Below are positions 13,797-62,862 of a DNA stretch of 64,000 nt, piece after piece (the stretch's first letter is position 1; each line of letters begins with the position of its first letter). The notes under the pieces were generated by a model. That model did no database searches and had not been told where the DNA came from. It worked only from the letters and a program-made list of their open reading frames with translations. Source of the stretch: Patescibacteria group bacterium (GTDB lineage: Bacteria; Patescibacteriota; Minisyncoccia; Phycocordibacterales; JAKFXT01); assembly GCA_038063555.1 (NCBI GenBank), contig JBBTUX010000010.1:22936-86935 (forward strand), read 5' to 3'. A program made the position numbers and the translations under genes.

Positions 13797-13828
13797 TTCT
13801 GCAAAATTGTGCCTACAATTTTGCAGAA
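13797..13828 (+). terminator. Perfect 14-bp-stem hairpin after rpsO
   Basis: TTCTGCAAAATTGTgcctACAATTTTGCAGAA. No T-tract, so may be a processing site rather than a terminator. Confidence 0.4.
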
Positions 13829-13829
13829 T

Positions 13830-13900
13830 GAGTTATGAGCCAGGTGAGTTAGGAGTTATGAATTTAAAAATCGTAACTCATATCTCTTAACTCTTACCTC
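13830..13900. repeat. 'Empty' copy of the GAGTTAYGA inverted-repeat hairpin element
   Basis: Left arm gagttatgagccaggtgagttaggagttatga, loop atttaaaaa, right arm tcgtaactcatatctcttaactcttacctc (reverse-complement units). Confidence 0.6.
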
Positions 13901-25887: not shown

Positions 25888-26952
25888 TTGGTGGAGGCAA
25901 AGATGGAAAACTTTGCAAAAATACTGCCTAGCAGACGCTTTTCGGCCGTGTTGGGGTCGTTGGTATTTGTTATTGTCTTAGTTTGGGGAGCCAAAGCCCT
26001 TTCTATGTCAAAAAATTCTTCTGTTTCCATTGCCGATAGCCCCTCTCTCATTACAAGCAGTGAAATAGAACGTCTCTCTTTTGAAAAAGTAAATTTGATT
26101 GATAGCGATGAAGATGATCTGAAAGATTGGGAGGAAATTCTCTGGCAAACCGACCCTAAAAACCCCGACACTGATAGCGACGGAACAAACGATGGGGAAG
26201 AAATAAAGAAAAATAGAGACCCTAAAGTTAAGGGTCCTAGCGACACTTTGCATTTACCAGTTGGCACCGACCAAAGCACAGTAAATAAAGTTGAGGAAAA
26301 ATTAACAACCACAGATTTGGTGGCGCGAGATTTTTTCAGTAAATACCTCGCCGCAAAACAAAGTGGGCAACCTATAGACAGTAATATATCTGGCCAAATA
26401 GCTTCCTCTGTTTTAACGCAAACAAAAACTATAGGAATAGTCAGACTTTATAGCCAAGGCGATTTAATAATTGATAAAAACGACAACACCGAAAATTTAA
26501 AAAGTTATGGTGAAAAAATGGGAAGCATTATAAAAAATACACCTCCTTGGAAAGAAAGTGAGTTAGAAATTATTAAGCAAGCGCTTGAAAGAGAGGACGA
26601 GAGCATTTTGAAACGACTTGACCCTATTATAAATGGCTACACTTCAATGCGCGAACAAATGTTAAAAATTACTGTGCCAGAAAAAGCGATTCCTACTCAT
26701 TTGGATTTATTGAATGCTATGGAGAAAATAATTTCTTCACTAAAATCCGCTCAAAATGTTTTCAAAGACCCGGTAACAGCATTGACGATTTTTGGAAAAT
26801 ATTCAGAAACAATTACAGGGCTTCATAGAGTTTTTATTGATATACGAGGACTTTTCCAAAGAAATAACATTACCTATGACAGCTTAAAAAACGATGGATA
26901 TTACTATGCCAATTTTGCAGATTTAATTGAATTGAGCGCAAAAAAACAATGA
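25888..26952 (+). CDS. Hypothetical signal-anchored/secreted protein with acidic DTDSDGTNDGEE Ca-binding-like repeat
   Basis: 354 aa. N-terminal hydrophobic segment, DxDxDG motif. Confidence 0.45.
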   Translation: MVEAKMENFAKILPSRRFSAVLGSLVFVIVLVWGAKALSMSKNSSVSIADSPSLITSSEIERLSFEKVNLIDSDEDDLKDWEEILWQTDPKNPDTDSDGTNDGEEIKKNRDPKVKGPSDTLHLPVGTDQSTVNKVEEKLTTTDLVARDFFSKYLAAKQSGQPIDSNISGQIASSVLTQTKTIGIVRLYSQGDLIIDKNDNTENLKSYGEKMGSIIKNTPPWKESELEIIKQALEREDESILKRLDPIINGYTSMREQMLKITVPEKAIPTHLDLLNAMEKIISSLKSAQNVFKDPVTALTIFGKYSETITGLHRVFIDIRGLFQRNNITYDSLKNDGYYYANFADLIELSAKKQ

Positions 26953-28598
26953 TTATTTCTTCTTTGCAAAAGCAAAATAGGTTGATATTTAAGGCCGTTT
27001 CTGTGTTTGTAGTATTAGCGTTTTTATTTTCACCTATTCTACCTGCCAAAAAAGTCGAGGCGCTAGTTGTGAGTTGTCCAGTTTGTGAGGCCATACTTAC
27101 CACCATAAGCACTGTGTCGACCTACATAATTGGCGGTGGCATAGCGTTTTTGGTTACTAAAGAAAAAGTCCTAGACCCGATTTTCAAAATGATTGCGCGC
27201 ATGATTTTACGGGGCATAACACAAAGCATTATCCAATGGGCAGCTGGTGGCTTCCAAGGCAATCCATCTTTTATACAAAACCCCACACAATTTTTTGCCA
27301 ATGTGGCTGACCAGGCCATAGGACAAATAATTTATAACAACGCCGGCCTACAATGGATGTGTAGTCCATTCCGGCTTCAATTGAAACGCGCTCTTATTTA
27401 CAATCGCTCTTTTACCCAAAGGTCACAGTGTACCTTGACCGGCATAGTCGGAAACTATGAAGGATTCATAAGTGGAGTTAATAATGAACTTGGAACTTTG
27501 GGTGGTTGGAATGCCTGGAACGTAATGGCAACGCAACCAGAAAATAATCCCTATGGAGCATACGCACTTTTTAATCTTCAGGTTGAAGCCGCTATTACAA
27601 CTGACAAAACGCGCGAGCTCAATCTTCTAAATTGGGGTAAGGGATTTTTCTCTTGGAAAGAGCCTGGATGTGTTCAAAGGGCAATGGCAAATAAGCAAAT
27701 ACAAGATACAAGAGATGTTTACGAAGGTGAGGGAGGCGGAGCTCCACTTCCTCAAGTAGTAAGTGAGGACGCTGCGGGTAATGTGAATCTTTACGATCGA
27801 GTGCCAGAGAATACCAACCCAAACAAATGCGACACAATCACTCCCGGAAGCGTCATCGCTGACTCCGTCAACAAAGCTCTTGGTGCGGGGCAAGACGAAC
27901 TTATTGCGGCGGATGAAATCGGTGAGGTTTTGGGAGCCGTGCTTTATGGACTGGTTACCAATGTTTTGGGGGATGCTGGTTTGTTTGGCGCCGGCGGAGG
28001 GGGTGGCGTATATTCAAATGATTACGAGGCACAAGTAGAGCAAGAGGATAGAGAGGTTTTTCAAACAACTAAAAACGACACTGTTTCTCAAATAGTTTCT
28101 AGTGCAAACGATGAAAATAGTTATATTGCAACTAAAAATCAATCTATTGCTCGTATAGAAATTTCAGCCCAAAAAGTGCGTGACATTATAGGGTGCTATC
28201 AACAAAGAATTGCTCTTGCCGCAAGTAGCACAGAGCCGGTTAATATAGCTCTGTTCCAAAATGAAATTGCTAGCGCCTCAACCACGCTTGCTCAAGTTCT
28301 CTTAAGAAAAGCACCTCTTCAGAGGGACATATCAATAGGGGAAAACAACTTAAACAATTTAAATTCATTGGGCGACCGAATGAGTGCTTTGCCGTATGAA
28401 AGAAGAGATTCTTTCCGCTCCCTTGCAAATGAATTTGCAAACTTGCTTTCTCAAATACATTACCAAGGAGATGTGATACAGGCAGAATATGAACGCGATT
28501 TCACCATTCCTGAAAGTTTGAAAACAATAGATACTCAGAGTGATCAGAAGTTCCAACAATGTCAAAATCCGCCTGAAACAAACAATCAAGCAGTATGA
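26949..28598 (+). CDS. Hypothetical membrane-anchored large extracytoplasmic protein (first gene of T4SS-like cluster)
   Basis: 549 aa. N-terminal TM, Gly-rich GAGGGGGV segment. Overlapping start/stop with neighbours (operon). Confidence 0.45.
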   Translation: MIISSLQKQNRLIFKAVSVFVVLAFLFSPILPAKKVEALVVSCPVCEAILTTISTVSTYIIGGGIAFLVTKEKVLDPIFKMIARMILRGITQSIIQWAAGGFQGNPSFIQNPTQFFANVADQAIGQIIYNNAGLQWMCSPFRLQLKRALIYNRSFTQRSQCTLTGIVGNYEGFISGVNNELGTLGGWNAWNVMATQPENNPYGAYALFNLQVEAAITTDKTRELNLLNWGKGFFSWKEPGCVQRAMANKQIQDTRDVYEGEGGGAPLPQVVSEDAAGNVNLYDRVPENTNPNKCDTITPGSVIADSVNKALGAGQDELIAADEIGEVLGAVLYGLVTNVLGDAGLFGAGGGGGVYSNDYEAQVEQEDREVFQTTKNDTVSQIVSSANDENSYIATKNQSIARIEISAQKVRDIIGCYQQRIALAASSTEPVNIALFQNEIASASTTLAQVLLRKAPLQRDISIGENNLNNLNSLGDRMSALPYERRDSFRSLANEFANLLSQIHYQGDVIQAEYERDFTIPESLKTIDTQSDQKFQQCQNPPETNNQAV

Positions 28599-31021
28599 GA
28601 AAGAAATTTGAATACATAATAGTAATTTCAATAATTCTTCAAAGTATTTTTGGATTTGTTTTGCCGGCGCAGGCGCAAGAAAATGACAATGTAAGTGCCA
28701 CATTTAATGCCGAAAATGCCACACAAATAAATAATGCCAACACCACCATTCCCTCAGGAGGATTGGAAAACCCTGCAAACAATCCAAGCAATCCAAATGC
28801 TTACAGTCCTCAAGCCGCCGCACAAGAAGCGCAACAAAAACAAGAAGCCGCTAAAAATGCGAAAAAAACTGAAATTCCAGAATTATGCACTTGGAAAGAG
28901 AAAGTTACGTTAAACATATCGGAATGCGTGGGAAACCTTCTTTTAGTCATAGGAGGCGCTTTTGTGGGAATAACAGGAACATTTTTAAACTTCTCAATCG
29001 AGATTACAGTTTTACAAATGTCAAAATTTGTTAATGACGTTGGAGTTATTACCGCGGGATGGAAAACTTTCCGCGACCTTGCCAATATGTTTTTCATCTT
29101 TATATTAATTTATATTGCCATTGCCACAATTATAGGTGCTGCCAGTATGAATACCCGCAAATCGCTGGTAATGGTAATAATTGTAGCCCTTCTTATTAAC
29201 TTCAGTATGTTTTTCACTAAGGTAGTAATTGACGCATCAAATATTCTGGCCATTCAATTTTATAATTCTATAAGCAAAGGGCCTAGTTCTTCAAATAATG
29301 GTTTCTCTTGGGTTTTTATGAACGCTTCGCGTCTTACCACCCTTTACCCGACCGACAGTTCTGCGACTGATAGTGCTAAAGCTAAGGGGTATAAAGGATC
29401 AAATATTCTTCTAATTGGTTTCTTCGGGCTTATATTTGGGATTATTTTATCTTTTTGTTTTCTTGCTATAGGAATTTTATTTGTTATAAGATTTGTAGTT
29501 TTACTTTTCTTAATGATGCTTTCGCCAATTGCCCTTTTGGGTCTTGTTGTAAACAGAATGGGAGAAGTTTGGACTAAGTGGCTTAACACATTATTTAGAG
29601 AAGCCATTTTTGCTCCGACTATTATGGCCATGCTTTGGATTATTGCTTCAATAGTGAACAATACGGCCTTCATAAATGCAATAAACCGAAATGGTCAAAC
29701 AGATGGAGGATTTTATAATATCATTGGGGAAACAATCAAAGATTCCATGGCTGTGGCAGTTAATTTTGGAATTTTGATAGCAATGCTCATAGGAGCTCTC
29801 ATTATTTCAAAAAACTTCAGTGGTTCAGCCGGCGGCGCCGTCTTGGGCGCCGCCGAAAAGTGGTCCAGAAAAGCAGCTGGTGGCATGACTTTCGGCGCCG
29901 CCGGCTTTGCTGGAAGAAAAAGCTTTGGCTGGGCAGGAAACAAATTGGCTGAAAATAAGGGGCTTGAACGCTTTGCGGCTAGAAATCCTTTTGTTGGTGG
30001 AAATATTTTGAGAGCGGCAAAGGGAGTTGCGAGTTCTAGTTTTGACGCTCGTGGCGCAGGAATCAGTGCCTTGGGAGATGCCGGAGGGAAGGGTGGTTAC
30101 AGAGGCATACTTGAGGCGCAAGTTAAAGAACGCCAACGCAGAGCGACAGAACTTAAAGATGTAAAAATCTATTCTGATGAAAAAACTGAAACCGAAGCCA
30201 CAGGCAGAGAAGAAGCTATAAAAGGATATGACACTCGCATTGCTGAATTAAATAAAAAAGCCGCTGAATTGAGAATGGTAACACCGAAAGACGTGGCTGA
30301 TGGAGAGAGATTGGCGGCAGAAAGAGAAAATATTGAAAAACAAAGAGTGGGAACTATAAATCTAAGAAACGAAGCCCAAGCCAAACTAAAAGAAATTCAT
30401 ACAGATCAAGGCAGAACAAAAACAGGTGAGCAGGTTTATGGTGAGCAACTAATGCAAGGACCAATTGCTGCTGTCATGAAGAGGCTTTCAGCAGAACGTG
30501 AAAAGTCTTCCAAAAAGATAGACGAGCCATACGCCAAAGATCGATATAAACAAGAAACCAAATATGCCGATGATATTACTCTTAATAGACTCGATGCTCA
30601 AATAGAAGAGCTTAGGGCACAGCTAGAAAGGGGAGCGAAAGCGGGGGTCAATGCTTCAGAAGCTATCGCGCGACACACCGAAGAACTTTCTAAGGTTGCT
30701 GAGAAAATGTCTAAAGTGGATTCAGAGGTCAAGTGGGGTCGCGCTAGTAACGAAGAAAGAGAGGTCTTAAAAACTGAGAGTGAAAATCTTAAAAAGAAAA
30801 TCGATGAGATTCAAAAAAACTCAAGTCGAGCGGCTAATTTACAAAAAGAACTTTTAGAAAAACAAATAAGCGACCTTAAAAATCAAAAAAGTAAAATCAA
30901 AGGTAAAAGAGCAACAGAAAAATTCCGCGAAGTGGTAAAAGAGTTTGGGTATGATGAAGAAAAAAAACAAGAAAAACCAACACCTGAAGTAAAAAACGAT
31001 GGTGGGGAAGCGAAAACATAA
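28595..31021 (+). CDS. Polytopic membrane protein, TrbL/VirB6-like, with long Lys/Glu-rich coiled-coil C-terminal extension
   Basis: Signal peptide, then ≥6 TM helices, then a ~350-aa charged tail. Architecture and context (next to PrgI-like and VirB4-like genes) suggest VirB6/TrbL. Confidence 0.4.
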   Translation: MRKKFEYIIVISIILQSIFGFVLPAQAQENDNVSATFNAENATQINNANTTIPSGGLENPANNPSNPNAYSPQAAAQEAQQKQEAAKNAKKTEIPELCTWKEKVTLNISECVGNLLLVIGGAFVGITGTFLNFSIEITVLQMSKFVNDVGVITAGWKTFRDLANMFFIFILIYIAIATIIGAASMNTRKSLVMVIIVALLINFSMFFTKVVIDASNILAIQFYNSISKGPSSSNNGFSWVFMNASRLTTLYPTDSSATDSAKAKGYKGSNILLIGFFGLIFGIILSFCFLAIGILFVIRFVVLLFLMMLSPIALLGLVVNRMGEVWTKWLNTLFREAIFAPTIMAMLWIIASIVNNTAFINAINRNGQTDGGFYNIIGETIKDSMAVAVNFGILIAMLIGALIISKNFSGSAGGAVLGAAEKWSRKAAGGMTFGAAGFAGRKSFGWAGNKLAENKGLERFAARNPFVGGNILRAAKGVASSSFDARGAGISALGDAGGKGGYRGILEAQVKERQRRATELKDVKIYSDEKTETEATGREEAIKGYDTRIAELNKKAAELRMVTPKDVADGERLAAERENIEKQRVGTINLRNEAQAKLKEIHTDQGRTKTGEQVYGEQLMQGPIAAVMKRLSAEREKSSKKIDEPYAKDRYKQETKYADDITLNRLDAQIEELRAQLERGAKAGVNASEAIARHTEELSKVAEKMSKVDSEVKWGRASNEEREVLKTESENLKKKIDEIQKNSSRAANLQKELLEKQISDLKNQKSKIKGKRATEKFREVVKEFGYDEEKKQEKPTPEVKNDGGEAKT

Positions 31022-31042
31022 GATAGAATGTAAAATATAAAC

Positions 31043-31906
31043 ATGCACTATTCACCTGATGAGTTACAAAGAAAATTTGATTCTCTGCCTGAAGAACTAA
31101 GGGAAGCGATTACTTCTGTTGACTTTGCCAAGTCCCTGCAAGAAATTGGCAAAACGAGTGGCTTGCACTTAGACCAATTAGATCAACTTTTTGAAGAAGT
31201 CGGTTTTGTTTTACTTGGAATGACACACCCAAGCGAGTTTGGCAGAAAAATTGGTGTTTTATTTAATCTTCCAGAAGTTGCTAGAAACAGTTTGGTAAAA
31301 GAAGTTGATGAAAAAATATTTAAACCAATTAGAACGTCTTTAATGTCTCTTCACAGTAAAACACCAAAAACGACCAACGACTTACGACCAACGACTTACG
31401 ACAGACAAACAAATGAGGTCAAACCCCGAGAACAAGCAATTCCTCATGAAACTGACTATAGTATGTCGAGAGCTGATATATTGTCTGCAATTGAGAACCC
31501 TGTGACCAAAAAAGTTAACATCGATAACACTCCAAAAAGGAATGTAGAAACTAGTGACCCTCATCTATATTTGTCGGAGCATAATGAAATGATTCAAAAA
31601 ATGAAAATTGCTCCTTTAGCAGGAAACATAATTACTCCTAAAAAATCCTTGGCAGAAGAAGCTGTTTTGGTAGCCCAGAAAAAAGTGGAGGGTGACAAAA
31701 GGACTCCCTCTCCCGACAAATCGCAAAATCCCTCTCCAATAATAATTCAGAAAACGCCCCCCGCTCCACAAAATATTCAACCTTTAACAATAGCCACTTC
31801 TCCTTTGGAAAAATTGAGCAGTGTTGTCCGTATTCCCAGACAGTCTGTCAACATTACGACACCGCCTACAACAAAAGGTGTCGATCCTTATAGAGAGGTT
31901 GTTTAA
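31043..31906 (+). CDS. Hypothetical protein with in-frame tandem CGACCAACGACTTACGA repeats (PTTND/PTTYD) and Pro/Thr-rich C-terminus
   Basis: 287 aa. Repeats at 31371-31406. Confidence 0.45.
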   Translation: MHYSPDELQRKFDSLPEELREAITSVDFAKSLQEIGKTSGLHLDQLDQLFEEVGFVLLGMTHPSEFGRKIGVLFNLPEVARNSLVKEVDEKIFKPIRTSLMSLHSKTPKTTNDLRPTTYDRQTNEVKPREQAIPHETDYSMSRADILSAIENPVTKKVNIDNTPKRNVETSDPHLYLSEHNEMIQKMKIAPLAGNIITPKKSLAEEAVLVAQKKVEGDKRTPSPDKSQNPSPIIIQKTPPAPQNIQPLTIATSPLEKLSSVVRIPRQSVNITTPPTTKGVDPYREVV

Positions 31907-32340
31907 GAACCAACAACTGACGACTTACAACTAACAATGAGAAAATTCAAATTTCTTGACTGGCAGGTCTATAAAGACTCTCGGGACTTGTTTTCTGAAA
32001 TATTAAAAATTGTAAAAAAATTACCAAAAGAATATAGATTTGAATTGGGGAGTCAGGTTATTCGCTCGTCTCTTTCTATAACCCTGAACATAGCGGAAGG
32101 TAGCGGAAAAGAATCTGACAAAGAGCTTGTTCGTTTTATTGAGATAAGCCTGGGTTCTGCGTATGAAACATTGGCCTGTTTAGACTCAATGAGAAATAGC
32201 GAGTTGATAACCTTGGTAGAGTTTAACAATTTGCAAGAAAAAATTTCCTCTGTTTGTAATCAACTCGGCGGACTAAAGAAAAAAGTTGTCTTAACAGAGA
32301 AGTTGTAAGTTGTTGGTTGTTGGTTGTAAGTTATAATTAG
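31907..32340 (+). mobile_element. IVS-like inverted-repeat element carrying four-helix-bundle gene #1
   Basis: Left flank gaaccaacaactgacgacttacaactaaca. Right flank gttgtaagttgttggttgttggttgtaagtt (reverse-complement relationship). Located between two operon genes. Confidence 0.5.
31937..32308 (+). CDS. Four-helix-bundle protein (23S rRNA intervening-sequence protein family, TIGR02436/PF05635-like; Avd-like fold)
   Basis: 123 aa. ...SQVIRSSLSITLNIAEGSGKES...GSAYETLACLD is the family pattern (NIAEG..R/K). Confidence 0.7.
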   Translation: MRKFKFLDWQVYKDSRDLFSEILKIVKKLPKEYRFELGSQVIRSSLSITLNIAEGSGKESDKELVRFIEISLGSAYETLACLDSMRNSELITLVEFNNLQEKISSVCNQLGGLKKKVVLTEKL

Positions 32341-32343
32341 CTC

Positions 32344-32868
32344 ATGCAATATCAAGTTCCACAATTTATAGAGGTTGAGGACAAACTTTTCGGTCCACTC
32401 ACTTTAAAACAGTTTATTTACCTTGCTGGGGGGGTTGGCATCGCGGTTGTTCTCTATATTTTCATTCCCATTAAATTTATAGCCATAATTATAGCTGTTC
32501 CTTTTGTCGCTTTTGCTATAGCCCTTTCTTTTTATAAGATAAACAGCAAGCCGTTTATTTTCACACTGGAGGCAGCTGTTGGTTATTGGCTGAAAAACAA
32601 ACTATACATTTGGAAAAAAACAACAAAGAAGATTGAAGCCAAAAAAGAAATGGTTGATGAAGGTCCTTCCATAGAAACTCTTTTAGCCCCCCGTCTTTCT
32701 GACAGTCGTCTTAAAGATTTGGCCTGGAGTTTAGATGTTAAGGAGCGCCTTGATTCAAGCCCCTTGGCAAAATACAAAGAGAAAAAACTTTCATTTGAAG
32801 AAGAGGAGAAGGAGAGGGTCGAGTTCACTAAGAACTATGACCTGGGTGCAAAAGGTCATAGTTCTTAG
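32344..32868 (+). CDS. PrgI-family-like small membrane protein (VirB3 analogue of Gram-positive-type T4SS)
   Basis: MQYQVPQFIEVEDKLFGPLTLKQFIYLAGGVGIAVVLYIF..., then a second TM and a charged tail. Context upstream of VirB4. Confidence 0.4.
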   Translation: MQYQVPQFIEVEDKLFGPLTLKQFIYLAGGVGIAVVLYIFIPIKFIAIIIAVPFVAFAIALSFYKINSKPFIFTLEAAVGYWLKNKLYIWKKTTKKIEAKKEMVDEGPSIETLLAPRLSDSRLKDLAWSLDVKERLDSSPLAKYKEKKLSFEEEEKERVEFTKNYDLGAKGHSS

Positions 32869-33300
32869 AGTTAAGAGTTACGAGATATGAGTTATGAAAA
32901 AATTAAAGATTTTACCGACCTTAGAGTATGGCAAGAGAGTCACAAATTGGTTCTTTTGACATACTTATTAACTAAAAAGTTTCCTGCTGAAGAAAAATTC
33001 TCACTTACTAGCCAACTTCGTAGGGCAGTTGTATCTATAACTTCAAATGTTGCCGAGGGTTTCGGAAGACAAAGCTATAAAGAAAGGATACAATTTTATT
33101 ATATGGCTCAAGGTTCATTAATTGAAGTAAAAAATCAACTTTTAGTGGCAAGAGATATTGGATATCTTGACAAGATAAATTTTGAAAAAGTTATGGAACA
33201 ATCAAATGTCGCTCATCAATTATTGCAAGGATTAATTAGAAGTTCTAAAGAATATCTTACTCGTAACTCGTAACTCTTATCTCATAACTCATTTTATGGC
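32851..33300 (+). mobile_element. IVS-like inverted-repeat element (GAGTTAYGA units) carrying four-helix-bundle gene #2
   Basis: Left arm agagttaagagttacgagatatgagttatga overlaps the start codon. Right arm tcgtaactcgtaactcttatctcataactc overlaps the stop. Arms are reverse complements of each other. Confidence 0.55.
32887..33273 (+). CDS. Four-helix-bundle protein (23S rRNA IVS protein family) #2
   Basis: 128 aa. ...LRVWQESHKLVLLTYLLTKKFPAEEKFSLTSQLRRAVVSITSNVAEGFGRQSYKERIQFYYMAQGSLIEV is the canonical family sequence. Confidence 0.75.
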   Translation: MSYEKIKDFTDLRVWQESHKLVLLTYLLTKKFPAEEKFSLTSQLRRAVVSITSNVAEGFGRQSYKERIQFYYMAQGSLIEVKNQLLVARDIGYLDKINFEKVMEQSNVAHQLLQGLIRSSKEYLTRNS

Positions 33301-33928
33301 ACAACAACAAACAGGTTCTACGCAAGATTTTGTGCCTATAAAGGAGGTGCGTGATGGAGTTGTAATACTTAAAGATGGCGGTCTAAGAGCCATACTTTTG
33401 ACATCTTCCGTTAACTTCGCTCTAAAATCGCAAGACGAGCAGGGATCAATAATTTTTCAATTTCAAAACTTTTTAAACTCGCTTGAATTTCCTATTGAAA
33501 TATTTCTTCAGTCAAGAAAATTGGACATAAGACCATATCTTTCGCTTTTAGAAAATCGCTATCGCGAACAAGTGGTTGATTTGCTGAAAATACAAACTCG
33601 CGAATATATTGAATTCATAAAAAGTTTCACTGAAAGCGCCAACATTATGACTAAAAGTTTTTTTATAGTAATTCCTTACACTCCTCCAATTTTAACTTCT
33701 TCCTCGGTGGGAAACTTTTTCGGTGGCAATAAAAAACCTACCCCGCAAGATTTATCTAATCAATTTGAAGAACATCGAACTCAATTGGAGCAAAGAATCT
33801 CCGTTGTAGAACAGGGAATGGTGCGTACCGGAGTAAGGGTTGTGCAACTTGGCACAGAAGAAATAATCGAGCTTTACTATAAAATATTCAATCCGGGAGA
33901 GCAGGACAAACCAATGAAATTGTCGTAG
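33296..33928 (+). CDS. virB4: VirB4/TrbE-family N-terminal domain (gene split from the ATPase part)
   Basis: DFVPIKEVRDGVVILKDGGLRAILLTSSVNFALKS resembles N-termini of Gram-positive VirB4 proteins (PrgJ/TcpF type). 210 aa; 210 + 604 gives a typical VirB4 length. Ends in a perfect 18-bp hairpin. Confidence 0.5.
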   Translation: MAQQQTGSTQDFVPIKEVRDGVVILKDGGLRAILLTSSVNFALKSQDEQGSIIFQFQNFLNSLEFPIEIFLQSRKLDIRPYLSLLENRYREQVVDLLKIQTREYIEFIKSFTESANIMTKSFFIVIPYTPPILTSSSVGNFFGGNKKPTPQDLSNQFEEHRTQLEQRISVVEQGMVRTGVRVVQLGTEEIIELYYKIFNPGEQDKPMKLS

Positions 33929-33944
33929 ACAATTTCATTGGTTT
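33901..33944. repeat. Perfect 18-bp inverted repeat overlapping the stop codon of the VirB4 N-terminal ORF
   Basis: CAAACCAATGAAATTGTC-gta-GACAATTTCATTGGTTTG. Confidence 0.7.
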
Positions 33945-34095
33945 GGAGTTACGAGTTAAGAGACGCGAGTTACGAACAAGAAAGTCCCAAAAAATACTGA
34001 ATTTGGAGTATAATTTCAGTGTATGACAACAAATAACTTGTTGGGGTCTTTTGTTAATATCATTCTCATAACTCTTATCTCATAACTCTTCCCTT
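33945..34095. repeat. 'Empty' GAGTTAYGA hairpin element between the two virB4 ORFs
   Basis: Left arm ggagttacgagttaagagacgcgagttacga, ~95-bp core containing aatttcagtgtatg, right arm tcataactcttatctcataactc. No four-helix-bundle gene inside. Confidence 0.55.
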
Positions 34096-35910
34096 ATGGC
34101 TTTACTTGATTTTTTTAAATCCAAACCTAAAAACGAGCCGGGGTTAACGGCTATACTCCCTCAAGAGATTTATGAGTCCGGAGTGTTGGAGCTAAAGGAC
34201 GTTATAGCGCCTTCTGCTTTGAAGATTTCCCCGAAAGAAATAAATTTGGGAGAAAAAATCGTCAGAACTTTTTTTGTTATTTCTTACCCACGCTATTTGA
34301 CTGAAAGTTGGTTTGCTCCAATTATTAATCTTGATAAGGTTTTTGACGCATCTATTTTTATACACCCCATTGAAACTGCCAAAATTTTGCGACAATTCCA
34401 AAAAAAAGTGGCGGAGGTGCAGAGTCAAATACATGAGCGCGAAGAGAAGGGATTGGTTCGAGACCCCGTTCTTGATACGGCTTATCAAGACCTTGAGCAC
34501 TTGAGGGATTCTTTGCAACAAGCCCAGGAAAAAATTTTTGATGTTGGTCTTTATATTTCAATTTATGGCGATTCAAACCAAGAGTTGGACAAAGTGGAGT
34601 CCGAAGTTAAATCAATTCTTGAGTCAAAACTTGTTTATATGAAACCGGCTCTTTTTCAACAAGAGCAGGGTTTCCGAAGCGTTCTCCCCATTGGAACGGA
34701 TGAGCTTGGCGTTCATTCTAAATTAAATTCTTCTCCTCTTTCTAGCGTTTTTCCTTTTATTTCTTTTGACTTAACGTCGGACAAAGGGATTCTTTACGGT
34801 ATCAATCGCCACAACGCATCGTTAGTTCTTTTTGATAGATTTTCTCTTGAAAATTATAATTCCGTCACTTTTGCTAAATCTGGTTCGGGAAAATCTTATG
34901 CTACCAAGTTAGAGATTCTGCGAACGCTTATGTTTGACTCGGAAGTTATTGTGCTTGATCCAGAGAGAGAGTATGAGTATTTAGCCGAAGCTACAGGGGG
35001 ACGTTATTTTAATGTGTCATTAACGTCTGAACACCACATAAACCCATTTGATTTACCAATTCCAAGAGAAGATGAGTCAACGGCCGATGTTTTGCGCTCA
35101 AATATTGTTAATTTAGTTGGGCTGTTCCGTGTAATGATGGGAGGATTAAGTGCTGAAGAAGACGCTATTATTGACAGGGCAATTAGTGAAACTTATGCTC
35201 TCAAAGATATTACGCCGGATTCTGATTTTTCAAACATAGAGCCGCCTTTAATGTCCGACTTTGAATTAGTGCTGACAGGAATGGAGGGTGGTGAGAGTTT
35301 GGCGCAACGGCTTACCAAATACACCAAGGGAACTTGGGCCGGGTTTATAAATAGGCCGACAAATGTTGATATAAATAAAAAATTCGTGGTTTTTTCTGTG
35401 CGCGACATGGAAGATGAGTTGAAGCCCGTTGCCATGTATATTGTAATGCATTTTATTTGGAATGCTATAAGACGAGAACTCAAAAAACGTCTTTTGATAG
35501 TGGATGAGGCCTGGTGGATGATGAAATCCGAAGATACCGCTTCCTTTCTATACAGCTTGGTTAAAAGGGGGCGAAAATATTTCCTAGGAGTTGCCACAAT
35601 TACCCAAGACGTGGGAGATTTCTTAAAATCACCATACGGCATGCCCATTATTACCAACTCTTCACTTCAACTTCTTTTAAAACAATCACCATCCTCAATT
35701 GATGATGTGCAAAAAACATTTAACTTAACCGAGGAAGAAAAATATTTGTTGTTAGAAAGCGATGTGGGAGAGGGAATCTTCTTTGCCGGATTAAAACACG
35801 TGGCTATAAAAATAATCGCTTCTTATACTGAAGATCAAATTATAACGTCCGACCCTTCACAGATACTTTCTATTAGAAAAGCAAAAACCGAGCTTAGTTT
35901 GGCAAATTAA
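34096..35910 (+). CDS. virB4: VirB4/TrbE-family conjugal-transfer/T4SS ATPase, ATPase portion
   Basis: Walker A FAKSGSGKSYATK, ...VIVLDPEREY..., Walker B LLIVDEAWWM, and a C-terminal domain. Own ATG, in a different frame from the upstream ORF. Confidence 0.75.
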   Translation: MALLDFFKSKPKNEPGLTAILPQEIYESGVLELKDVIAPSALKISPKEINLGEKIVRTFFVISYPRYLTESWFAPIINLDKVFDASIFIHPIETAKILRQFQKKVAEVQSQIHEREEKGLVRDPVLDTAYQDLEHLRDSLQQAQEKIFDVGLYISIYGDSNQELDKVESEVKSILESKLVYMKPALFQQEQGFRSVLPIGTDELGVHSKLNSSPLSSVFPFISFDLTSDKGILYGINRHNASLVLFDRFSLENYNSVTFAKSGSGKSYATKLEILRTLMFDSEVIVLDPEREYEYLAEATGGRYFNVSLTSEHHINPFDLPIPREDESTADVLRSNIVNLVGLFRVMMGGLSAEEDAIIDRAISETYALKDITPDSDFSNIEPPLMSDFELVLTGMEGGESLAQRLTKYTKGTWAGFINRPTNVDINKKFVVFSVRDMEDELKPVAMYIVMHFIWNAIRRELKKRLLIVDEAWWMMKSEDTASFLYSLVKRGRKYFLGVATITQDVGDFLKSPYGMPIITNSSLQLLLKQSPSSIDDVQKTFNLTEEEKYLLLESDVGEGIFFAGLKHVAIKIIASYTEDQIITSDPSQILSIRKAKTELSLAN

Positions 35911-35911
35911 T

Positions 35912-36454
35912 ATGGAGCAAACTCAAAAAATAGATAGAATTCCAAACGTATGGGCTTTTTTTATGGTTTCTGTTGCTATTATATTTGACCTTTTAGGTTT
36001 TGGCCTTGCTTTTATTCCAGTTGCTGGCTGGCTTATGGCTTCTGCTGTTGGCGTTGTTGCTTTTTTAACTTTCTTTCTATGGTTTACCTTTCGTGGTGCT
36101 GGATATAACAGCACAAGAAAAGTTGCTATTTCAGGCGGCGGATTTCTTGTGGAATTCATACCTCTTTTAAACGCTCTGCCAGCTTGGACTCTTTCCACCT
36201 CACTAATGATTATGGTTGTGAAAGGAGAGGATTTATTTGAAAATCAAAAAAATAAATTAAAGTTGAAACCAAAATATTATGGTCAAAAACTGACAGTGAA
36301 GCCCGCCGCAAATGATAGAAATTATAAAAGTAATTACACTTCTCCCTCAACACCTTCTCCTGTAAATGCTAGACAAAACCCACCCCTAACAAATCGTGGT
36401 TTCAAAGGCATTGCCTCGTCAGATGACACCTCTCGTTTTATTAAAGCTGCATAA
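35912..36454 (+). CDS. Hypothetical membrane protein (T4SS-like cluster)
   Basis: 180 aa, 3-4 TM helices, Pro/Ser-rich tail. Confidence 0.4.
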   Translation: MEQTQKIDRIPNVWAFFMVSVAIIFDLLGFGLAFIPVAGWLMASAVGVVAFLTFFLWFTFRGAGYNSTRKVAISGGGFLVEFIPLLNALPAWTLSTSLMIMVVKGEDLFENQKNKLKLKPKYYGQKLTVKPAANDRNYKSNYTSPSTPSPVNARQNPPLTNRGFKGIASSDDTSRFIKAA

Positions 36455-36455
36455 A

Positions 36456-37463
36456 ATGACTATTTTTACCAAAAAAATTTTAGTGATACTTGCCCTAAGC
36501 TTTTTAAGTTTTTTACCAACCATTGCTTTGTCCCAAACAATAGATTCTTATAAAGATTCTTTGCGCACGGTTATCACTCCGCCAAACCCACAAGCCAATC
36601 AAACGATATCAATTCATCTTGAAAGCTCTCTCATTGACCTTTCTCTTTCCACTATAACTTGGAGTGTTGATGGGAAAGTGATACTTAAAGGAAAAGACCG
36701 TAGGGTATTGGAAACAAAACTTAAAGAAATTGGCAAAGAAACAAATATTTTGATTTCTGTTAACAGTCCCCTTTATGGCTCTTTTGACAAAGAAATAACT
36801 ATAAATCCGACCTCAATTAGCTTAATTTATGAAGCCAATACCTATACTCCTCCGTTTTATAAAGGAAAAGCTTTGCCTTCCTCTGAAAGCGTTGTTACGC
36901 TACTTGCTTTGCCACGCTTTATAAAAAACAATGGAACCCCAATTTCTTCTAAAGATTTAATTTTCACTTGGAAAAAAGAGGGTGTGGTGGACGGCGCCAA
37001 TTCTGGTTTGGGCAAAGACACTTATGTTTTTATAACGGGTAGATTACCGGAAGACACACCTTTAATTGAGGTTAGCGCTTTATTCCCCGAAGAAAGTCTG
37101 CGTGGCTACTCTTCAATTTTACTCCCTTCGTTTAACCCAGAAATTATTGTCTATGAAAATAATCCAATCCTTGGCGTTATTTTAAATAAAGCGATGTCTA
37201 ATGACAATCTTTTGTCAGGTAAAGAAATGTCACTTGTCGCTTACCCATATTTCTTTTCCGGAAAAAACAGAGAGTCAATCAATTTTGAATACGCGTGGTA
37301 TATTAACAATGAAAAAGTGGCTGATATTCCCCAAAACCAAAGCGGGCTAACCATAAGAAGCCCCGAGGGCAGCGGAACTTCCGCTTTGAGAGTGTCGCTT
37401 TCCAATATTAGAAAAATTTTCCAGGTCGCTTCAACAAATTTATTGGTAAAATATGGAGAATAA
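36456..37463 (+). CDS. Hypothetical secreted protein (signal peptide)
   Basis: MTIFTKKILVILALSFLSFLPTIALSQ is a signal peptide. Start placed at 36456, immediately after the upstream stop; the longer listed ORF overlaps the previous gene. Confidence 0.45.
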   Translation: MTIFTKKILVILALSFLSFLPTIALSQTIDSYKDSLRTVITPPNPQANQTISIHLESSLIDLSLSTITWSVDGKVILKGKDRRVLETKLKEIGKETNILISVNSPLYGSFDKEITINPTSISLIYEANTYTPPFYKGKALPSSESVVTLLALPRFIKNNGTPISSKDLIFTWKKEGVVDGANSGLGKDTYVFITGRLPEDTPLIEVSALFPEESLRGYSSILLPSFNPEIIVYENNPILGVILNKAMSNDNLLSGKEMSLVAYPYFFSGKNRESINFEYAWYINNEKVADIPQNQSGLTIRSPEGSGTSALRVSLSNIRKIFQVASTNLLVKYGE

Positions 37464-37501
37464 AAACAGCTTTTAGGTTTCAGCTTTCAGCTTCTAGCTT
37501 T

Positions 37502-38164
37502 ATGATAAAAAAATTAAGAAAAATCGTTGGGAAAACTTTTCTAATAGTTGTGGTTTTTTTCGTTATCTCCTCGCCATTAATTGTTTCGGCCGAACCAACG
37601 GCAAAATGCAACCCCGACCAAAAAGACACATATTGTTTGCTGGCGCCCATCCCTTTCTTTGGCGATAGCGGAGACACCTACAAAACCGGCGACATTGGTA
37701 AATATGTAAAAGCTATTATAAATCTTTCTATTGTCATTGCGGCTGTTTTGGCAGTTGTAATGATAACCATAGGCGGTTTTAAATATATGACCAGTGAGTC
37801 TATTGGGCTAAAAGAAGAAGGTAAAAAAAACATAAGAGATGCCTTCTTAGGACTTGTAATTTTGACTTCGTCTTTCTTAATTTTAAAAACCATAAATCCA
37901 GAGCTTCTTAAATTTAATTTAAACATTCAAACAATCGGCGTTCCAGGGAACACGGCTCAACCAAAAAGCACTAGTCCTCCACTAATATATACAGAGGAGC
38001 AAAACAGACAGGGTTTGTATGAAGTAATCCCAGGAGTAGATCTTAAATCGACCCCCAACCTAACACGCGATCAATTCTATACAAACTGTACAGCTAAAGG
38101 AGGGAAGCCTCGTCCAGAAGGACTAGGTCCAGAAAGTCAAGTTTATCGTTGTTACAATAAGTAA
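37502..38164 (+). CDS. Signal-peptide protein with two hydrophobic helices; possible VirB2/TrbC-like pilin
   Basis: Signal peptide, then ...YVKAIINLSIVIAAVLAVVMITIGGFKYM... and ...AFLGLVILTSSFLILKTI... The architecture is pilin-like. Inference only. Confidence 0.3.
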   Translation: MIKKLRKIVGKTFLIVVVFFVISSPLIVSAEPTAKCNPDQKDTYCLLAPIPFFGDSGDTYKTGDIGKYVKAIINLSIVIAAVLAVVMITIGGFKYMTSESIGLKEEGKKNIRDAFLGLVILTSSFLILKTINPELLKFNLNIQTIGVPGNTAQPKSTSPPLIYTEEQNRQGLYEVIPGVDLKSTPNLTRDQFYTNCTAKGGKPRPEGLGPESQVYRCYNK

Positions 38165-38166
38165 TT

Positions 38167-39390
38167 ATGTCTAAATCAACTGCCATCACAATTATTGTCG
38201 TCGTACTCTTGGCCATAAGCGGGGGCCTCGCTTGGTGGTATTTTTCATTGGGACAATCAGGAGTGGGGAACCAAAACAACGACAGTGGTGGAATAAATTT
38301 TTTCCCTTTTGGAAATAACAACGAACCAACGACCAACGACCAACAACTGACAACCGACAAAGAAAATCAAACGGAAAATGCTCCGGAAATTAGAGAGGTT
38401 TCGCGTTTGCCCGTTGCTGGGTTTTTACCACTTGTTGATAATTTAGGATTTCCTTTTGTTCGTTATGTTGACCAGGAAACTGGCAATTTATATGACGCCC
38501 CCCTTGAAATAGTTTCCAAAAAAAGAATAAGCAATACCACCATACCTAAAATCAGAGAAGTTCATTGGCTTTCTGGGGGAAATTCTTTTATTATGCGCTA
38601 CTTGGACGAAAAGGATTCTCTGCAAAGCTTTTATGCCACCCTAAAAGAAAATTCTTCCGCTGAAGGAAGTTTAACGGGACGCTTTCTATTAGAAAATATT
38701 TCTGACTTGAGTTTGTTTAGAACCAACAGTGCTTCAACAAAAATATTTTATTATTTAACAGAAAATTCCGTCGCCACAATGTTTTCCGCCGAAAGCGACG
38801 GTAGCAAGGCCACTCATGTTTACTCCTCCCCAATGAAAGATTGGTTACTTTATGGAATAAATGATTCTTTGGCTTATATTCAAACAAAGTCATCTGGTCT
38901 TGCCCCCTCCTTTGTTTTTTCTCTTAATATTAAAAATGGAACCGCAAACCCAACTCTTTCAAATTTTATTGGCCTTTCTATTCTTCCCAACAAAAAGGGG
39001 GACTTGATTTTATACTCCAGTACTCCTTTTGAATACCCTTTGCTATACATTTATGATGTAAACAAAAAAACTTCAACCCAAACCTCACTTAGAACTTTTG
39101 CTGACAAATGTCGCTGGAGTGAAAGTAATGTAAGTCGCATCATCTGCGCGGTGCCCACAAACATCCCGCGAGGAACTTACCCCGACGACTGGTATAAAGG
39201 CACAATATCTTTTAGTGATAATATTTGGGAAATTGATTCTGTTAGCGGAACGGCAAAGGAGTTGGTAAGTTTGTATAAAAATTCTTTCTTTTTTGACATT
39301 TCTTCTTTTTCTTTAAGCGACAAAGATAAATTTCTTATTTTGCAAGATAAAACAAACAACTCCCTTTGGAGCGTCCGCCTCAAACAATAA
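38167..39390 (+). CDS. Hypothetical membrane-anchored extracytoplasmic protein; contains in-frame CAACCAACGAC repeat
   Basis: 407 aa, N-terminal TM. Repeat at 38321-38358 encodes NEPTTNDQQLTTD. Confidence 0.45.
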   Translation: MSKSTAITIIVVVLLAISGGLAWWYFSLGQSGVGNQNNDSGGINFFPFGNNNEPTTNDQQLTTDKENQTENAPEIREVSRLPVAGFLPLVDNLGFPFVRYVDQETGNLYDAPLEIVSKKRISNTTIPKIREVHWLSGGNSFIMRYLDEKDSLQSFYATLKENSSAEGSLTGRFLLENISDLSLFRTNSASTKIFYYLTENSVATMFSAESDGSKATHVYSSPMKDWLLYGINDSLAYIQTKSSGLAPSFVFSLNIKNGTANPTLSNFIGLSILPNKKGDLILYSSTPFEYPLLYIYDVNKKTSTQTSLRTFADKCRWSESNVSRIICAVPTNIPRGTYPDDWYKGTISFSDNIWEIDSVSGTAKELVSLYKNSFFFDISSFSLSDKDKFLILQDKTNNSLWSVRLKQ

Positions 39391-53841: not shown

Positions 53842-54279
53842 ATGGTACTAAAAATAGAAAGTTTAAAAGAGTTAAAAAATTTCTCTAAGAAATTTCTTAA
53901 AGAATTAAATCCAGTAAAAACTGGCGCCACTATTTTAGCGCTTCAGGGAAATTTAGGAAGCGGTAAAACTGCTTTTGTAAAAGTTTTGGGAAAGAATCTT
54001 GGTATTAAAAAAACCATAATTAGTCCCACTTTCATTATTATGAAACTGTACGATATATCGTACAAAAATTTTAAAAAACTGATTCATGTTGATGCGTACA
54101 GATTGGAAAAAGAAAAAGAGTTGGAAGTTTTGGGTTGGCAGGAAATTTTGAAAAACCCAGAGAATTTAATTGCTATTGAATGGCCAGAAAATGTTTCAAA
54201 AGTTATTCCCCAAAGTGCCAAAAAACTTAAATTTAAATTTGTTGATGAAAAGACACGAAGTGTAAAGTCCGAGATATGA
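53842..54279 (+). CDS. tsaE: tRNA threonylcarbamoyladenosine biosynthesis ATPase TsaE
   Basis: Walker A ILALQGNLGSGKTAFVK...HVDAYRL. The last codons lie within a GAGTTAYGA repeat arm. Confidence 0.7.
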   Translation: MVLKIESLKELKNFSKKFLKELNPVKTGATILALQGNLGSGKTAFVKVLGKNLGIKKTIISPTFIIMKLYDISYKNFKKLIHVDAYRLEKEKELEVLGWQEILKNPENLIAIEWPENVSKVIPQSAKKLKFKFVDEKTRSVKSEI

Positions 54280-54355
54280 GTTACGAGATATGAGTTATGA
54301 TAAAGGCATAAGAAGGTGAACAATTTTTAATATCGTAACTCCTAACTCATAACTC
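54270..54355. repeat. 'Empty' GAGTTAYGA hairpin element between tsaE and polA
   Basis: Left arm gagatatgagttacgagatatgagttatga, loop ~32 bp, right arm tcgtaactcctaactcataactc, then aaaatttcagtgtATG (the polA start). Confidence 0.6.
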
Positions 54356-54368
54356 AAAATTTCAGTGT

Positions 54369-61929: not shown

Positions 61930-62862
61930 TTAGGAACAGAGAAGTTTTTGATGTTTAGAACAAAAGTGAGCACTTCGGCCATTTACTATTTTTCGTAAAA
62001 TTACTCCTTTGCATTGGTGTTTTTGACAGGGCTTACCTGTTTTTCTGTAGGCCATGTGTTTATTTTGGAATTTGCCTTTTTTGCCATCAACATTTCTATA
62101 GTCAGAGGTTGAATCTCCCCCAAAGTGAATACCGCCCTTTAGGGCTGGTTTGATTGCCCGAAAAACTTTTTGCAAAAGTTTTTCGGGTAAATTTCGCACT
62201 CTCTCTTCTGGATTAACCCCAGAATGAAAAAGAATTTCATCAGAGTAAATATTGCCAATTCCAGAAATCACAGTTTGATCCATCAAAGCTGTTTTTATTT
62301 TGGTGTTTTGGCGTTTAAAAATTCGCTCCCTAAAAATTTTATATGTAAAATTTTTAGGGAGGGGTTCGGGTCCCAAGTGCGCAAGGTGAGGGGAATGAAG
62401 AAGTTTGTCGGTTTCAATAAGAGCAATTTTCCCAAATTTTCTCGTGTCGCAAAAAACAAGATGTTTTCCATTACTAAGCGTAAAAACAGCATGAATGAAG
62501 CGATTAAACGGGTTACGGAGAGCCTCGTTCTTTTCTTTTTCGTGTGGTATCCAAACTTCCTTTTTCTTTTTGTTGGTTGTTGGTTGTAAGTCGTAGGTTT
62601 TTTTGTAATACCCAACCATTAAATGACCAGTCATTTTCATATGAATTAAGACCGTTTTATTACCCGAAAGATTTATCAATATATTTTTGGCACGTCTTTT
62701 AATAGAAATTACTTTTTTATTTAATATTTCTTTTTTAAATTTAGAAAAGGCAATGGAGTGAAACATTTTTTCGAAGTCCGTCCAAACATCTTTTATCGAA
62801 AGCTTGGGTAGGACTTTCTGTAGTCCAGAAACGGTTGTTTGTACCTCGGGTAATTCGGGCAT
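61930..62862 (-). CDS. mutM: Formamidopyrimidine-DNA glycosylase; contains in-frame CAACCAAC-type repeat insertion
   Basis: MPELPEVQTTV... N-terminus, H2TH region, and a C-terminal zinc finger (CQKHQC...C..C). Insertion ...YDLQPTTNKKKKE... is encoded by 62570-62597. Confidence 0.85.
   Translation of the reverse strand: MPELPEVQTTVSGLQKVLPKLSIKDVWTDFEKMFHSIAFSKFKKEILNKKVISIKRRAKNILINLSGNKTVLIHMKMTGHLMVGYYKKTYDLQPTTNKKKKEVWIPHEKEKNEALRNPFNRFIHAVFTLSNGKHLVFCDTRKFGKIALIETDKLLHSPHLAHLGPEPLPKNFTYKIFRERIFKRQNTKIKTALMDQTVISGIGNIYSDEILFHSGVNPEERVRNLPEKLLQKVFRAIKPALKGGIHFGGDSTSDYRNVDGKKGKFQNKHMAYRKTGKPCQKHQCKGVILRKIVNGRSAHFCSKHQKLLCS

Follow-up and report, generated by a model that had tools for sequence, protein, structure and literature searches.

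Two four-helix-bundle genes as probable cargo of intervening-sequence-type cassettes in a type IV secretion-like operon of a Patescibacteria group bacterium

We analysed a stretch of 64,000 nt from a Patescibacteria group bacterium (assembly GCA_038063555.1, contig JBBTUX010000010.1, positions 22,936 to 86,935 of the forward strand), hereafter the window, in which two genes of one four-helix-bundle (FHB) protein family, FHB1 and FHB2, lie inside a gene cluster that resembles a type IV secretion system (T4SS). The analysis makes it moderately probable that both genes are the cargo of cassettes of about 420 nt, built like the intervening sequences (IVSs) of 23S rRNA, which were inserted into the T4SS-like mRNA operon and for which we propose processing at the RNA level. 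Comparison with related loci demonstrates that such cassettes entered the stop-start junctions of a conserved gene cluster of Paceibacteria, which belong to the candidate phyla radiation (CPR), recurrently at three adjacent junctions, and that they decay by internal deletion into hairpins without an open reading frame (ORF) but with the same unit family within a genome. The distribution of further copies suggests that cassettes with heptamer arms are a widespread insertion element not limited to rRNA. Coordinates refer to the window, and features lie on its + strand unless stated otherwise.

The initial annotation had placed the two ORFs in the four-helix-bundle family, an assignment that profile searches bear out. 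FHB1 (31937..32308, 123 aa) scored 98.1 bits against PF05635 (E=4e-28) and 99.4 bits against TIGR02436 (E=1e-28), and FHB2 (32887..33273, 128 aa, stop codon 33271-33273) scored 124.7 bits (E=2e-36) and 116.5 bits (E=6e-34), far above the curated cut-offs of 33.8 bits for PF05635 and 24 bits for TIGR02436. By sequence, residues 12-117 of FHB2 match the solved pentameric protein XCC0516 (PDB 2gsc chain A; E=1e-18), in which four-helix bundles form a homopentameric toroid. FHB1 and FHB2 are paralogues only distantly related to each other (phmmer E ~1e-14; 29% identity in alignment), and no further family member was found in the window. At the positions of the family motif GxxRxxxSxxxNxxE (PMC3936711), R46, N54 and E57 are invariant and S50 nearly so among 15 aligned cassette proteins. 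The ratio of nonsynonymous to synonymous substitution (dN/dS) was 0.06-0.10 for the two usable homologue pairs, the remaining pairs being saturated, which indicates that the protein is under purifying selection and functional where it is intact. A single-sequence search returned 21,550 cluster representatives of the family; no relative was found on viral contigs, and no defence-system model of PADLOC matched at E <= 0.01. We would guess, as a working idea, that the repeat arrays flanking its gene are what the protein binds.

These arrays consist of inverted 7-nt units, called at the arms by Tandem Repeats Finder. The left arm of cassette 1 (31907..31936) begins immediately past the stop codon (31904-31906) of a 287-aa gene and comprises about four units (ACCAACA / ACTGACG / ACTTACA / ACTAACA); the right arm (32300..32336), with 5.3 copies of AAGTTGT-type heptamers, overlaps the FHB1 stop codon and is followed by the start of the next gene, PrgI, at 32344. 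In cassette 2, the left arm (32868..32897) contains 4.3 GAGTTAY heptamers (called as GAGTTAT) and includes the FHB2 start codon, and the right arm (33259..33292; array called at 33259-33290) contains 4.6 ACTCGTA heptamers and includes the FHB2 stop codon, the next start lying at 33296. The cassettes measure 418-423 nt in total, and each is closed by an inverted repeat of 25 nt with 88% complementarity (31908-31932/32301-32325 and 32868-32892/33259-33283). Both long-range stems are closed in the predicted RNA structures (z = -3.9 and -4.7, with 0 of 100 shuffles equally stable): 24 of 24 positions pair in cassette 1 (21 Watson-Crick and 3 G·U) and 23 of 25 in cassette 2. The inverted-repeat scores of the flanks, 16.5 and 17.5, fall within the top 0.6-0.8% of 1008 control ORFs from related loci. 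Folding and the inverted-repeat check thus confirm the long imperfect repeats described in the initial annotation, with the cassette 2 pair overlapping start and stop codons. The arms had also been called gene-specific; this is too simple, the 7-nt units forming genome-wide families that also occur without an ORF. Shuffling of unit order gave weak evidence for a mirrored order of units in the two arms (median z = 1.8; 9 of 63 elements individually significant), as three to five units permit few permutations. There is also complementarity (score 18.5) between the right arm of cassette 2 (33259-33290) and the left arm of the ORF-less hairpin that follows (33946-33981). The gene between them (33296..33928) is thus itself enclosed by arms able to pair, as are ten host genes of other loci, and the RNA might pair in alternative ways over whole genes.

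The host of both cassettes is a co-directional cluster of the + strand at about 26949-38164, in which a 549-aa gene, an 808-aa gene, the 287-aa gene, PrgI and the N- and C-terminal parts of VirB4 follow one another in an order kept across 80 related loci. Between the cassettes lies the PrgI-family (VirB3-like) gene (32344..32868; PF12666, 42.9 bits against a cut-off of 27), with orthologues in 77 of the 80 loci, and downstream of cassette 2 lie a TraC-like N-terminal VirB4 fragment, VirB4-N (33296..33928), a separate ORF in nearly all relatives, and the VirB4-like ATPase of the CD1110 family, VirB4-C (34096..35910; NF045971, 374.8 bits against a cut-off of 325). These profile matches, together with the absence of rRNA among the Rfam matches of the window (five tRNAs; 38% guanine plus cytosine, GC), corroborate the earlier placement of the genes outside rRNA and amid T4SS-like genes. 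Promoter-like and terminator-like sites showed no excess over 26500-38500, which is consistent with a single transcript of the cluster.

The 80 loci were obtained by a scan for the VirB4 ATPase in species-representative genomes; all are from metagenome-assembled genomes of Patescibacteria/Paceibacteria, at 78-89% identity. Family genes were sought by iterated hidden Markov model (HMM) search in all six-frame ORFs of these loci and the window (81 sequences, 1.4 Mb). All 16 family genes recovered lie within the cluster and on the operon strand: seven between the 287-aa gene and PrgI, four between PrgI and VirB4-N, four between VirB4-N and VirB4-C, and one between the 549-aa and 808-aa genes. The concentration of 15 of the 16 insertions in three adjacent junction types is highly non-random (binomial P = 2e-8, with about 926 co-directional junctions). 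Family genes are absent from 68 of the 80 orthologous clusters, including that of the closest relative, L001 (89% identity), whose empty junctions are tight, reading 'TAG aacat ATG' between PrgI and VirB4-N and 'TAA tt ATG' between the two VirB4 ORFs; the comparison with orthologous operons that had been proposed earlier as a search for insertion-free alleles has accordingly found them. The same junction holds FHB proteins of different clades in different genomes, a pattern that speaks for a hot spot at which independent insertions occurred repeatedly. No more than 3 of the 80 metagenomic FHB2 relatives adjoin PrgI or VirB4, which indicates that the family is not tied to the T4SS-like system.

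Other insertions have been observed at the junction between PrgI and VirB4-N. In L032 (8700-9240), from another Paceibacteria genome, a gene for a GxxExxY protein (TIGR04256, E = 2e-18), of a family usually classed with the PD-(D/E)XK nucleases, lies between inverted arrays of ATACGAA-type heptamers, and heptamer-armed cassettes therefore carry at least a second cargo family. In L006 (8574-9313), the junction contains an insert of 739 nt, the opposite strand of which has broken ORFs that by eye resemble a MazF/PemK-type toxin and have no NCBIfam match. This junction seems to attract other small insertions too.

The route by which cassettes lose their gene is visible in four assemblies from related samples, whose sister strains carry a 168-nt in-frame internal deletion of FHB1; an 11-nt overlap marks its boundary, and neither arm is damaged. 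The exact PrgI protein occurs on 12 contigs. The allele shows that FHB1 is dispensable and how ORF-less hairpins may arise. Downstream of the deletion the sequence is 100% identical to that of the window, and upstream of the deletion point L162 (1886-2829) is 97.6% identical to window positions 31061-32004, a difference that suggests a recombination boundary at the cassette. The same locus carries an additional 132-aa ORF between the 808-aa and 287-aa genes.

Three ORF-less hairpins of the window share the GAGTTAY units of cassette 2, which assigns the arms to genome-wide repeat families; the several ORF-less inverted-repeat copies with common ends are those of elements like MITEs (miniature transposable elements with inverted repeats) or cyanobacterial short tandemly repeated repetitive (STRR) sequences. 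One hairpin (33946..34090; arms 33946-33975 and 34064-34090, 88-nt loop; fold z = -4.5) occupies the junction of VirB4-N and the VirB4 ATPase gene that in L001 measures only 2 nt (TAA tt ATG). Another (54270..54356; z = -4.5) stands between a 145-aa gene (53842..54279), the stop codon of which is overlapped by its left arm, and the DNA polymerase I gene polA. The remaining one (13830-13900) follows a 14-bp hairpin, both within 13797..13900, downstream of an rpsO-like gene (fold z = -6.4). A 14-nt string, AATTTCAGTGTATG, is common to the loop of the 33946-34090 hairpin (34012-34025) and to positions 54358-54371, just downstream of the 54270-54356 hairpin, where it includes the polA start codon; this sharing may be a trace of recombination between elements.

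The build of the two cassettes recurs well beyond the window. Inverted arms with 7-nt periodicity flank 15 of the 16 operon copies, with a unit sequence that varies by genome and inverted-repeat scores in the top 0.3-5% of the 1008 control ORFs, and the lag-7 autocorrelation of the flanks was 0.43/0.48 for FHB genes compared with 0.28 for controls. Among metagenomic relatives, found with a 5-sequence alignment subset, 60 of the 70 evaluable ones carry periodic inverted arms over a range of 27-59% GC. Among 75 elements, 62 have a period of 7 and 11 a period of 8, the median arm measures 27 nt, and the arms hug the ORF, which starts a median of 8 nt after the left arm and stops a median of 3 nt before the right one. 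The left arm is C-poor on the sense strand (A 39, G 26, T 28, C 7%), with more G than C in 69 of the 75 elements. A Shine-Dalgarno function of this purine-rich arm was considered as its cause and rejected, a Shine-Dalgarno-like 4-mer being found in 5% of long ORFs and upstream of 17 of 86 FHB genes. Arm-like sites are about 6-fold more frequent per 10 kb in the same locus (0.82) than in other loci (0.13). Periodic inverted arms flank 64 ORFs; 54 of these encode FHB proteins, and the other ten are host genes caught between two adjacent elements, with reversed polarity.

In cultured organisms, copies with the same build were found on plasmids of Nostoc (TAGGGAG x5; GGGAAAA) and Riemerella (GGTTTAA), on a Trichormus plasmid, where the copy has CAGAATT... 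arms and adjoins TrbI/VirB10, and on a Picosynechococcus plasmid, where the copy has 8-nt units and lies between cmr2 and cmr3; a further family copy sits between ribonucleotide reductase (RNR) genes. The cyanobacterial PF05635 genes examined are flanked by exactly STRR-like arrays. In Azospirillum lipoferum, a 23S rRNA gene contains a copy about 1150 nt past the gene start, with a total length of 469 nt and 36-nt arms of CAGAGGA/CGGATGA heptamers, so that a genuine rRNA IVS shares the build. This agrees with the IVS of Coxiella, in which tandem heptamers stand in the stem beside the start of the S23p gene and a 28-bp stem is cleaved by RNase III (PMC4990558). Family members outside rRNA have been reported earlier between cmr genes (PMC3936711), and others are known in rRNA insertions of CPR bacteria (PMC11270868).

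Some cassettes are accompanied by a second, perfect hairpin on their left side. A 16-bp hairpin (32828..32868; -24.7 kcal/mol, z = -6.8) abuts the left arm of cassette 2; it consists of the final PrgI codons up to and including the stop codon. An 18-bp hairpin (33907..33945; -24.7 kcal/mol, z = -8.4) abuts the left arm of the ORF-less 33946-34090 element in the same way. In both, the last codons of the upstream gene recur as an inverted copy that makes up the 3' half, and both are absent at the empty sites of L001. Perfect hairpins of 10-22 bp abut the left arm in 11 of 78 elements, compared with 0.2% of controls and 3% on the right side. This asymmetry fits a model of processing, in which such a hairpin could shield the upstream fragment at its 3' end, but the hairpin could also be a scar that the mechanism of insertion left behind.

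According to the mechanism that we propose, the cluster would be read as one transcript in which the arms of each cassette pair into a stem of 24-25 bp, the length that RNase III needs, and RNase III would cut the polycistronic mRNA there, in the way that rRNA is cut at an IVS and Neisseria mRNAs are cut at Correia elements. The upstream fragment would then have its 3' end capped and protected by the perfect hairpin that often abuts the left arm. As the stop-to-start distance is 18-35 nt on either side, the FHB ORF could also carry translational coupling over the insertion. In the 81 Paceibacteria loci (L001-L080 and the window), only about 5% of the long ORFs follow a Shine-Dalgarno-like 4-mer, and neighbouring genes are typically a few nucleotides apart; translation in this lineage therefore probably proceeds by coupling rather than by Shine-Dalgarno pairing. 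Cleavage of the transcript at the cassettes would be the most likely consequence of the insertions, with chances that we judge to be about even, because RNase III cuts homologous rRNA stems (PMC4990558) and MITE hairpins in Neisseria mRNAs (PMC2649163).

In all tested respects but location, the cassettes have the build of an IVS, and the IVS-like architecture perceived in the initial annotation is upheld by the same size, the long terminal stem, the ORF in the loop and the heptamer arms seen in the IVSs of Coxiella and Azospirillum. Like the 23S rRNA IVSs of Leptospira, Coxiella and Xanthomonas, of S23p type, they hold the same protein family in the loop of a long terminal stem; their 418-423 nt compare with 428-444 nt in Coxiella (PMC4990558) and 469 nt in Azospirillum, and arms of tandem heptamers with a purine-rich left arm are common to Azospirillum and Coxiella (PMC4990558). 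Unlike these IVSs, the cassettes reside in the transcript of a protein-coding operon, at stop-start junctions and not in helix 25 or 45, so that the excision by RNase III known for rRNA IVSs would here sever an mRNA instead of fragmenting rRNA. With the STRR sequences of cyanobacteria they share 7-bp units, inverted hairpin arrays, genome-specific unit families and intercistronic sites such as that between hupS and hupL (PMC2670836). As far as found, however, STRRs have been described as repeats without genes, whereas here, in a CPR host, the deletion allele links hairpins to gene-bearing cassettes. The Correia elements of Neisseria and the MITE-like ERIC, BOX/RUP and REP/BIME sequences are likewise small inverted-repeat inserts between co-transcribed genes, and Correia hairpins fold in mRNA and can be bound or cut by RNase III, altering the expression of neighbouring genes (PMC2649163). 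The consensus of Correia elements is fixed, they show TA target duplications and they lack an ORF, in contrast to the periodic units described here, which vary by genome and mostly carry one protein family. In the literature searched, no paper was found that connects the IVS protein family with STRRs or, outside rRNA, with heptamer-armed cassettes, a result that does not disprove the existence of one.

Several results weigh against an IVS-type insertion processed in RNA. Stem mismatches show no excess of G·U over A·C (27 and 30 in 25 pooled stems; 20 and 18 in FHB stems, 7 and 12 in ORF-less ones) and hence nothing that selection on the sense RNA would have imprinted; the stems could owe their complementarity to maintenance at the DNA level. 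Arms are lacking in L026 among the operon copies and in about 10 of the 70 metagenomic ones, some cyanobacterial copies are antisense to neighbouring genes, and the S23p protein of Coxiella is thought not to be made (PMC4990558). No target-site duplication is visible between filled and empty junctions, and no transposase or recombinase was seen adjoining the cassettes. A motif scan found no RNase III signature in the window, which is uninformative for 64 kb. Public assemblies contain the exact FHB1 and FHB2 proteins at this site alone; there is consequently no sign of recent transposition and current mobility is unproven. Of the mobile cassette suggested in the initial annotation, insertion is established by the empty operons of relatives, and recent transposition is not borne out. 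The mismatch counts give some weight to a reading in which the cassettes are elements of DNA only, their inverted arrays serving as terminal repeats or recombination sites for an enzyme encoded elsewhere, or being maintained by template switching at the palindrome, with the RNA stem incidental and the transcript not specifically processed. The sharing of arm families by ORF-less derivatives within a genome is MITE-like and agrees with it, as does the resemblance of the left-flank inverted duplications of the target to a by-product of DNA synthesis. Against it stand the RNase III cleavage of rRNA IVSs of the same build (PMC4990558), the constant polarity and C-poor left arm in 69 of 75 elements, which point to a strand-specific constraint, and the very lack of a transposase near the cassettes, and we consider this explanation possible, with a distinctly smaller chance than a processed IVS-type cassette.

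It is unlikely that the heptamer hairpins are regulatory devices of the host, stabilisers or attenuators of intercistronic mRNA in which an FHB gene is a chance passenger. ORF-less hairpins do occupy the same kinds of junction, and for the STRR hairpins that separate hupS from hupL an effect on transcript stability has been proposed (PMC2670836), but a chance passenger would hardly account for 54 of 64 arm-flanked ORFs or for the closeness of the arms to start and stop codons, the deletion allele gives the direction from FHB cassette to ORF-less hairpin, and the empty junctions of relatives work without a hairpin. A role of the FHB proteins as accessory subunits or regulators of the T4SS-like machine, kept for that purpose, is very improbable. 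The purifying selection on the protein, the position of all 16 copies in VirB4-centred loci inside the cluster and on its strand, and the Trichormus copy beside TrbI/VirB10 would be in keeping with such a role; the genes are nevertheless missing from 68 of 80 orthologous clusters, the closest included, vary in position over four junctions with different clades at the same one, are carried as a deletion allele by sister strains and recur in rRNA, between cmr genes and between RNR genes, with only 3 of 80 metagenomic relatives near PrgI or VirB4. Least probable of all is a derivation from diversity-generating retroelements (DGRs), the two genes being Avd genes that lost the reverse transcriptase and the repeats. 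The four-helix-bundle fold and a distant sequence similarity are common to both (23-27 bits against PF22296; 23.8 and 21.7 bits against NF033474), but these scores lie far below the cut-offs of the Avd models (40 and 80 bits), unlike those for PF05635 and TIGR02436. A scan of the long ORFs for the YxDD motif, made without an HMM, gave one chance match in a coiled-coil protein, no template/variable direct repeat was detected near the genes and no long direct repeat within 31800-33400, in agreement with the earlier statement that the window contains no complete DGR. The heptamer-arm build is common to rRNA IVSs that are not DGRs. To our knowledge, Avd genes are not bracketed by heptamer arrays.

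Further arrays and ORF arrangements in and around the cluster deserve mention. VirB4 is represented at 33296-35910 by two neighbouring ORFs, the 210-aa N-terminal fragment and the 604-aa ATPase, and the same holds for nearly all of the 80 related loci, with a spacing usually of a few to about 20 nt, compared with 167 nt in the window. The split is ancestral to the group, and the hairpin now standing between the halves is not its cause. A/C-rich heptamer arrays of CAACNAC type, the family of the cassette 1 arm, occur in frame within coding regions at 31369-31402, 38319-38360 and 62570-62600, where their translation yields short PTT(N/Y)D-like inserts, of which one belongs to a 310-aa gene of the - strand (61930..62862); these inserts are reminiscent of the in-frame palindromic elements of Rickettsia. 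A third unit family, CAGCTTT x5 at 37467-37501, fills the 38-nt junction of a 355-aa and a 220-aa gene as a solo arm, without an inverted partner within 1.2 kb (best score 10), and resembles the cassette arms of L005.

What the IVS protein family does and where rRNA IVSs come from have been questions since the early 1990s, and the purpose of the cyanobacterial heptamer repeats is an equally long-standing one. A unit of gene plus heptamer hairpin in four settings, namely rRNA, a secretion operon of CPR bacteria, CRISPR cmr genes and cyanobacterial plasmids, ties the two puzzles together and offers a testable object in the form of one protein and one repeat array. We advance, as a speculation with a modest chance of being right, that rRNA IVSs, cyanobacterial STRR hairpins and the CPR operon inserts might be one unrecognised element class, with more than 20,000 protein clusters, whose pentameric protein would read its own 7-8-nt units, about one unit per subunit with four to five units per arm, and thereby control how the cassette folds, is cleaved or is copied; the protein would then be the maintenance or mobility factor of the element and not its passenger. 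The results further suggest that many operons of bacteria with small genomes may carry built-in cut sites of RNase III type and of foreign origin, which would bear on operon expression and on annotation, as exemplified by the split-looking VirB4 gene and by extended C-terminal tails.

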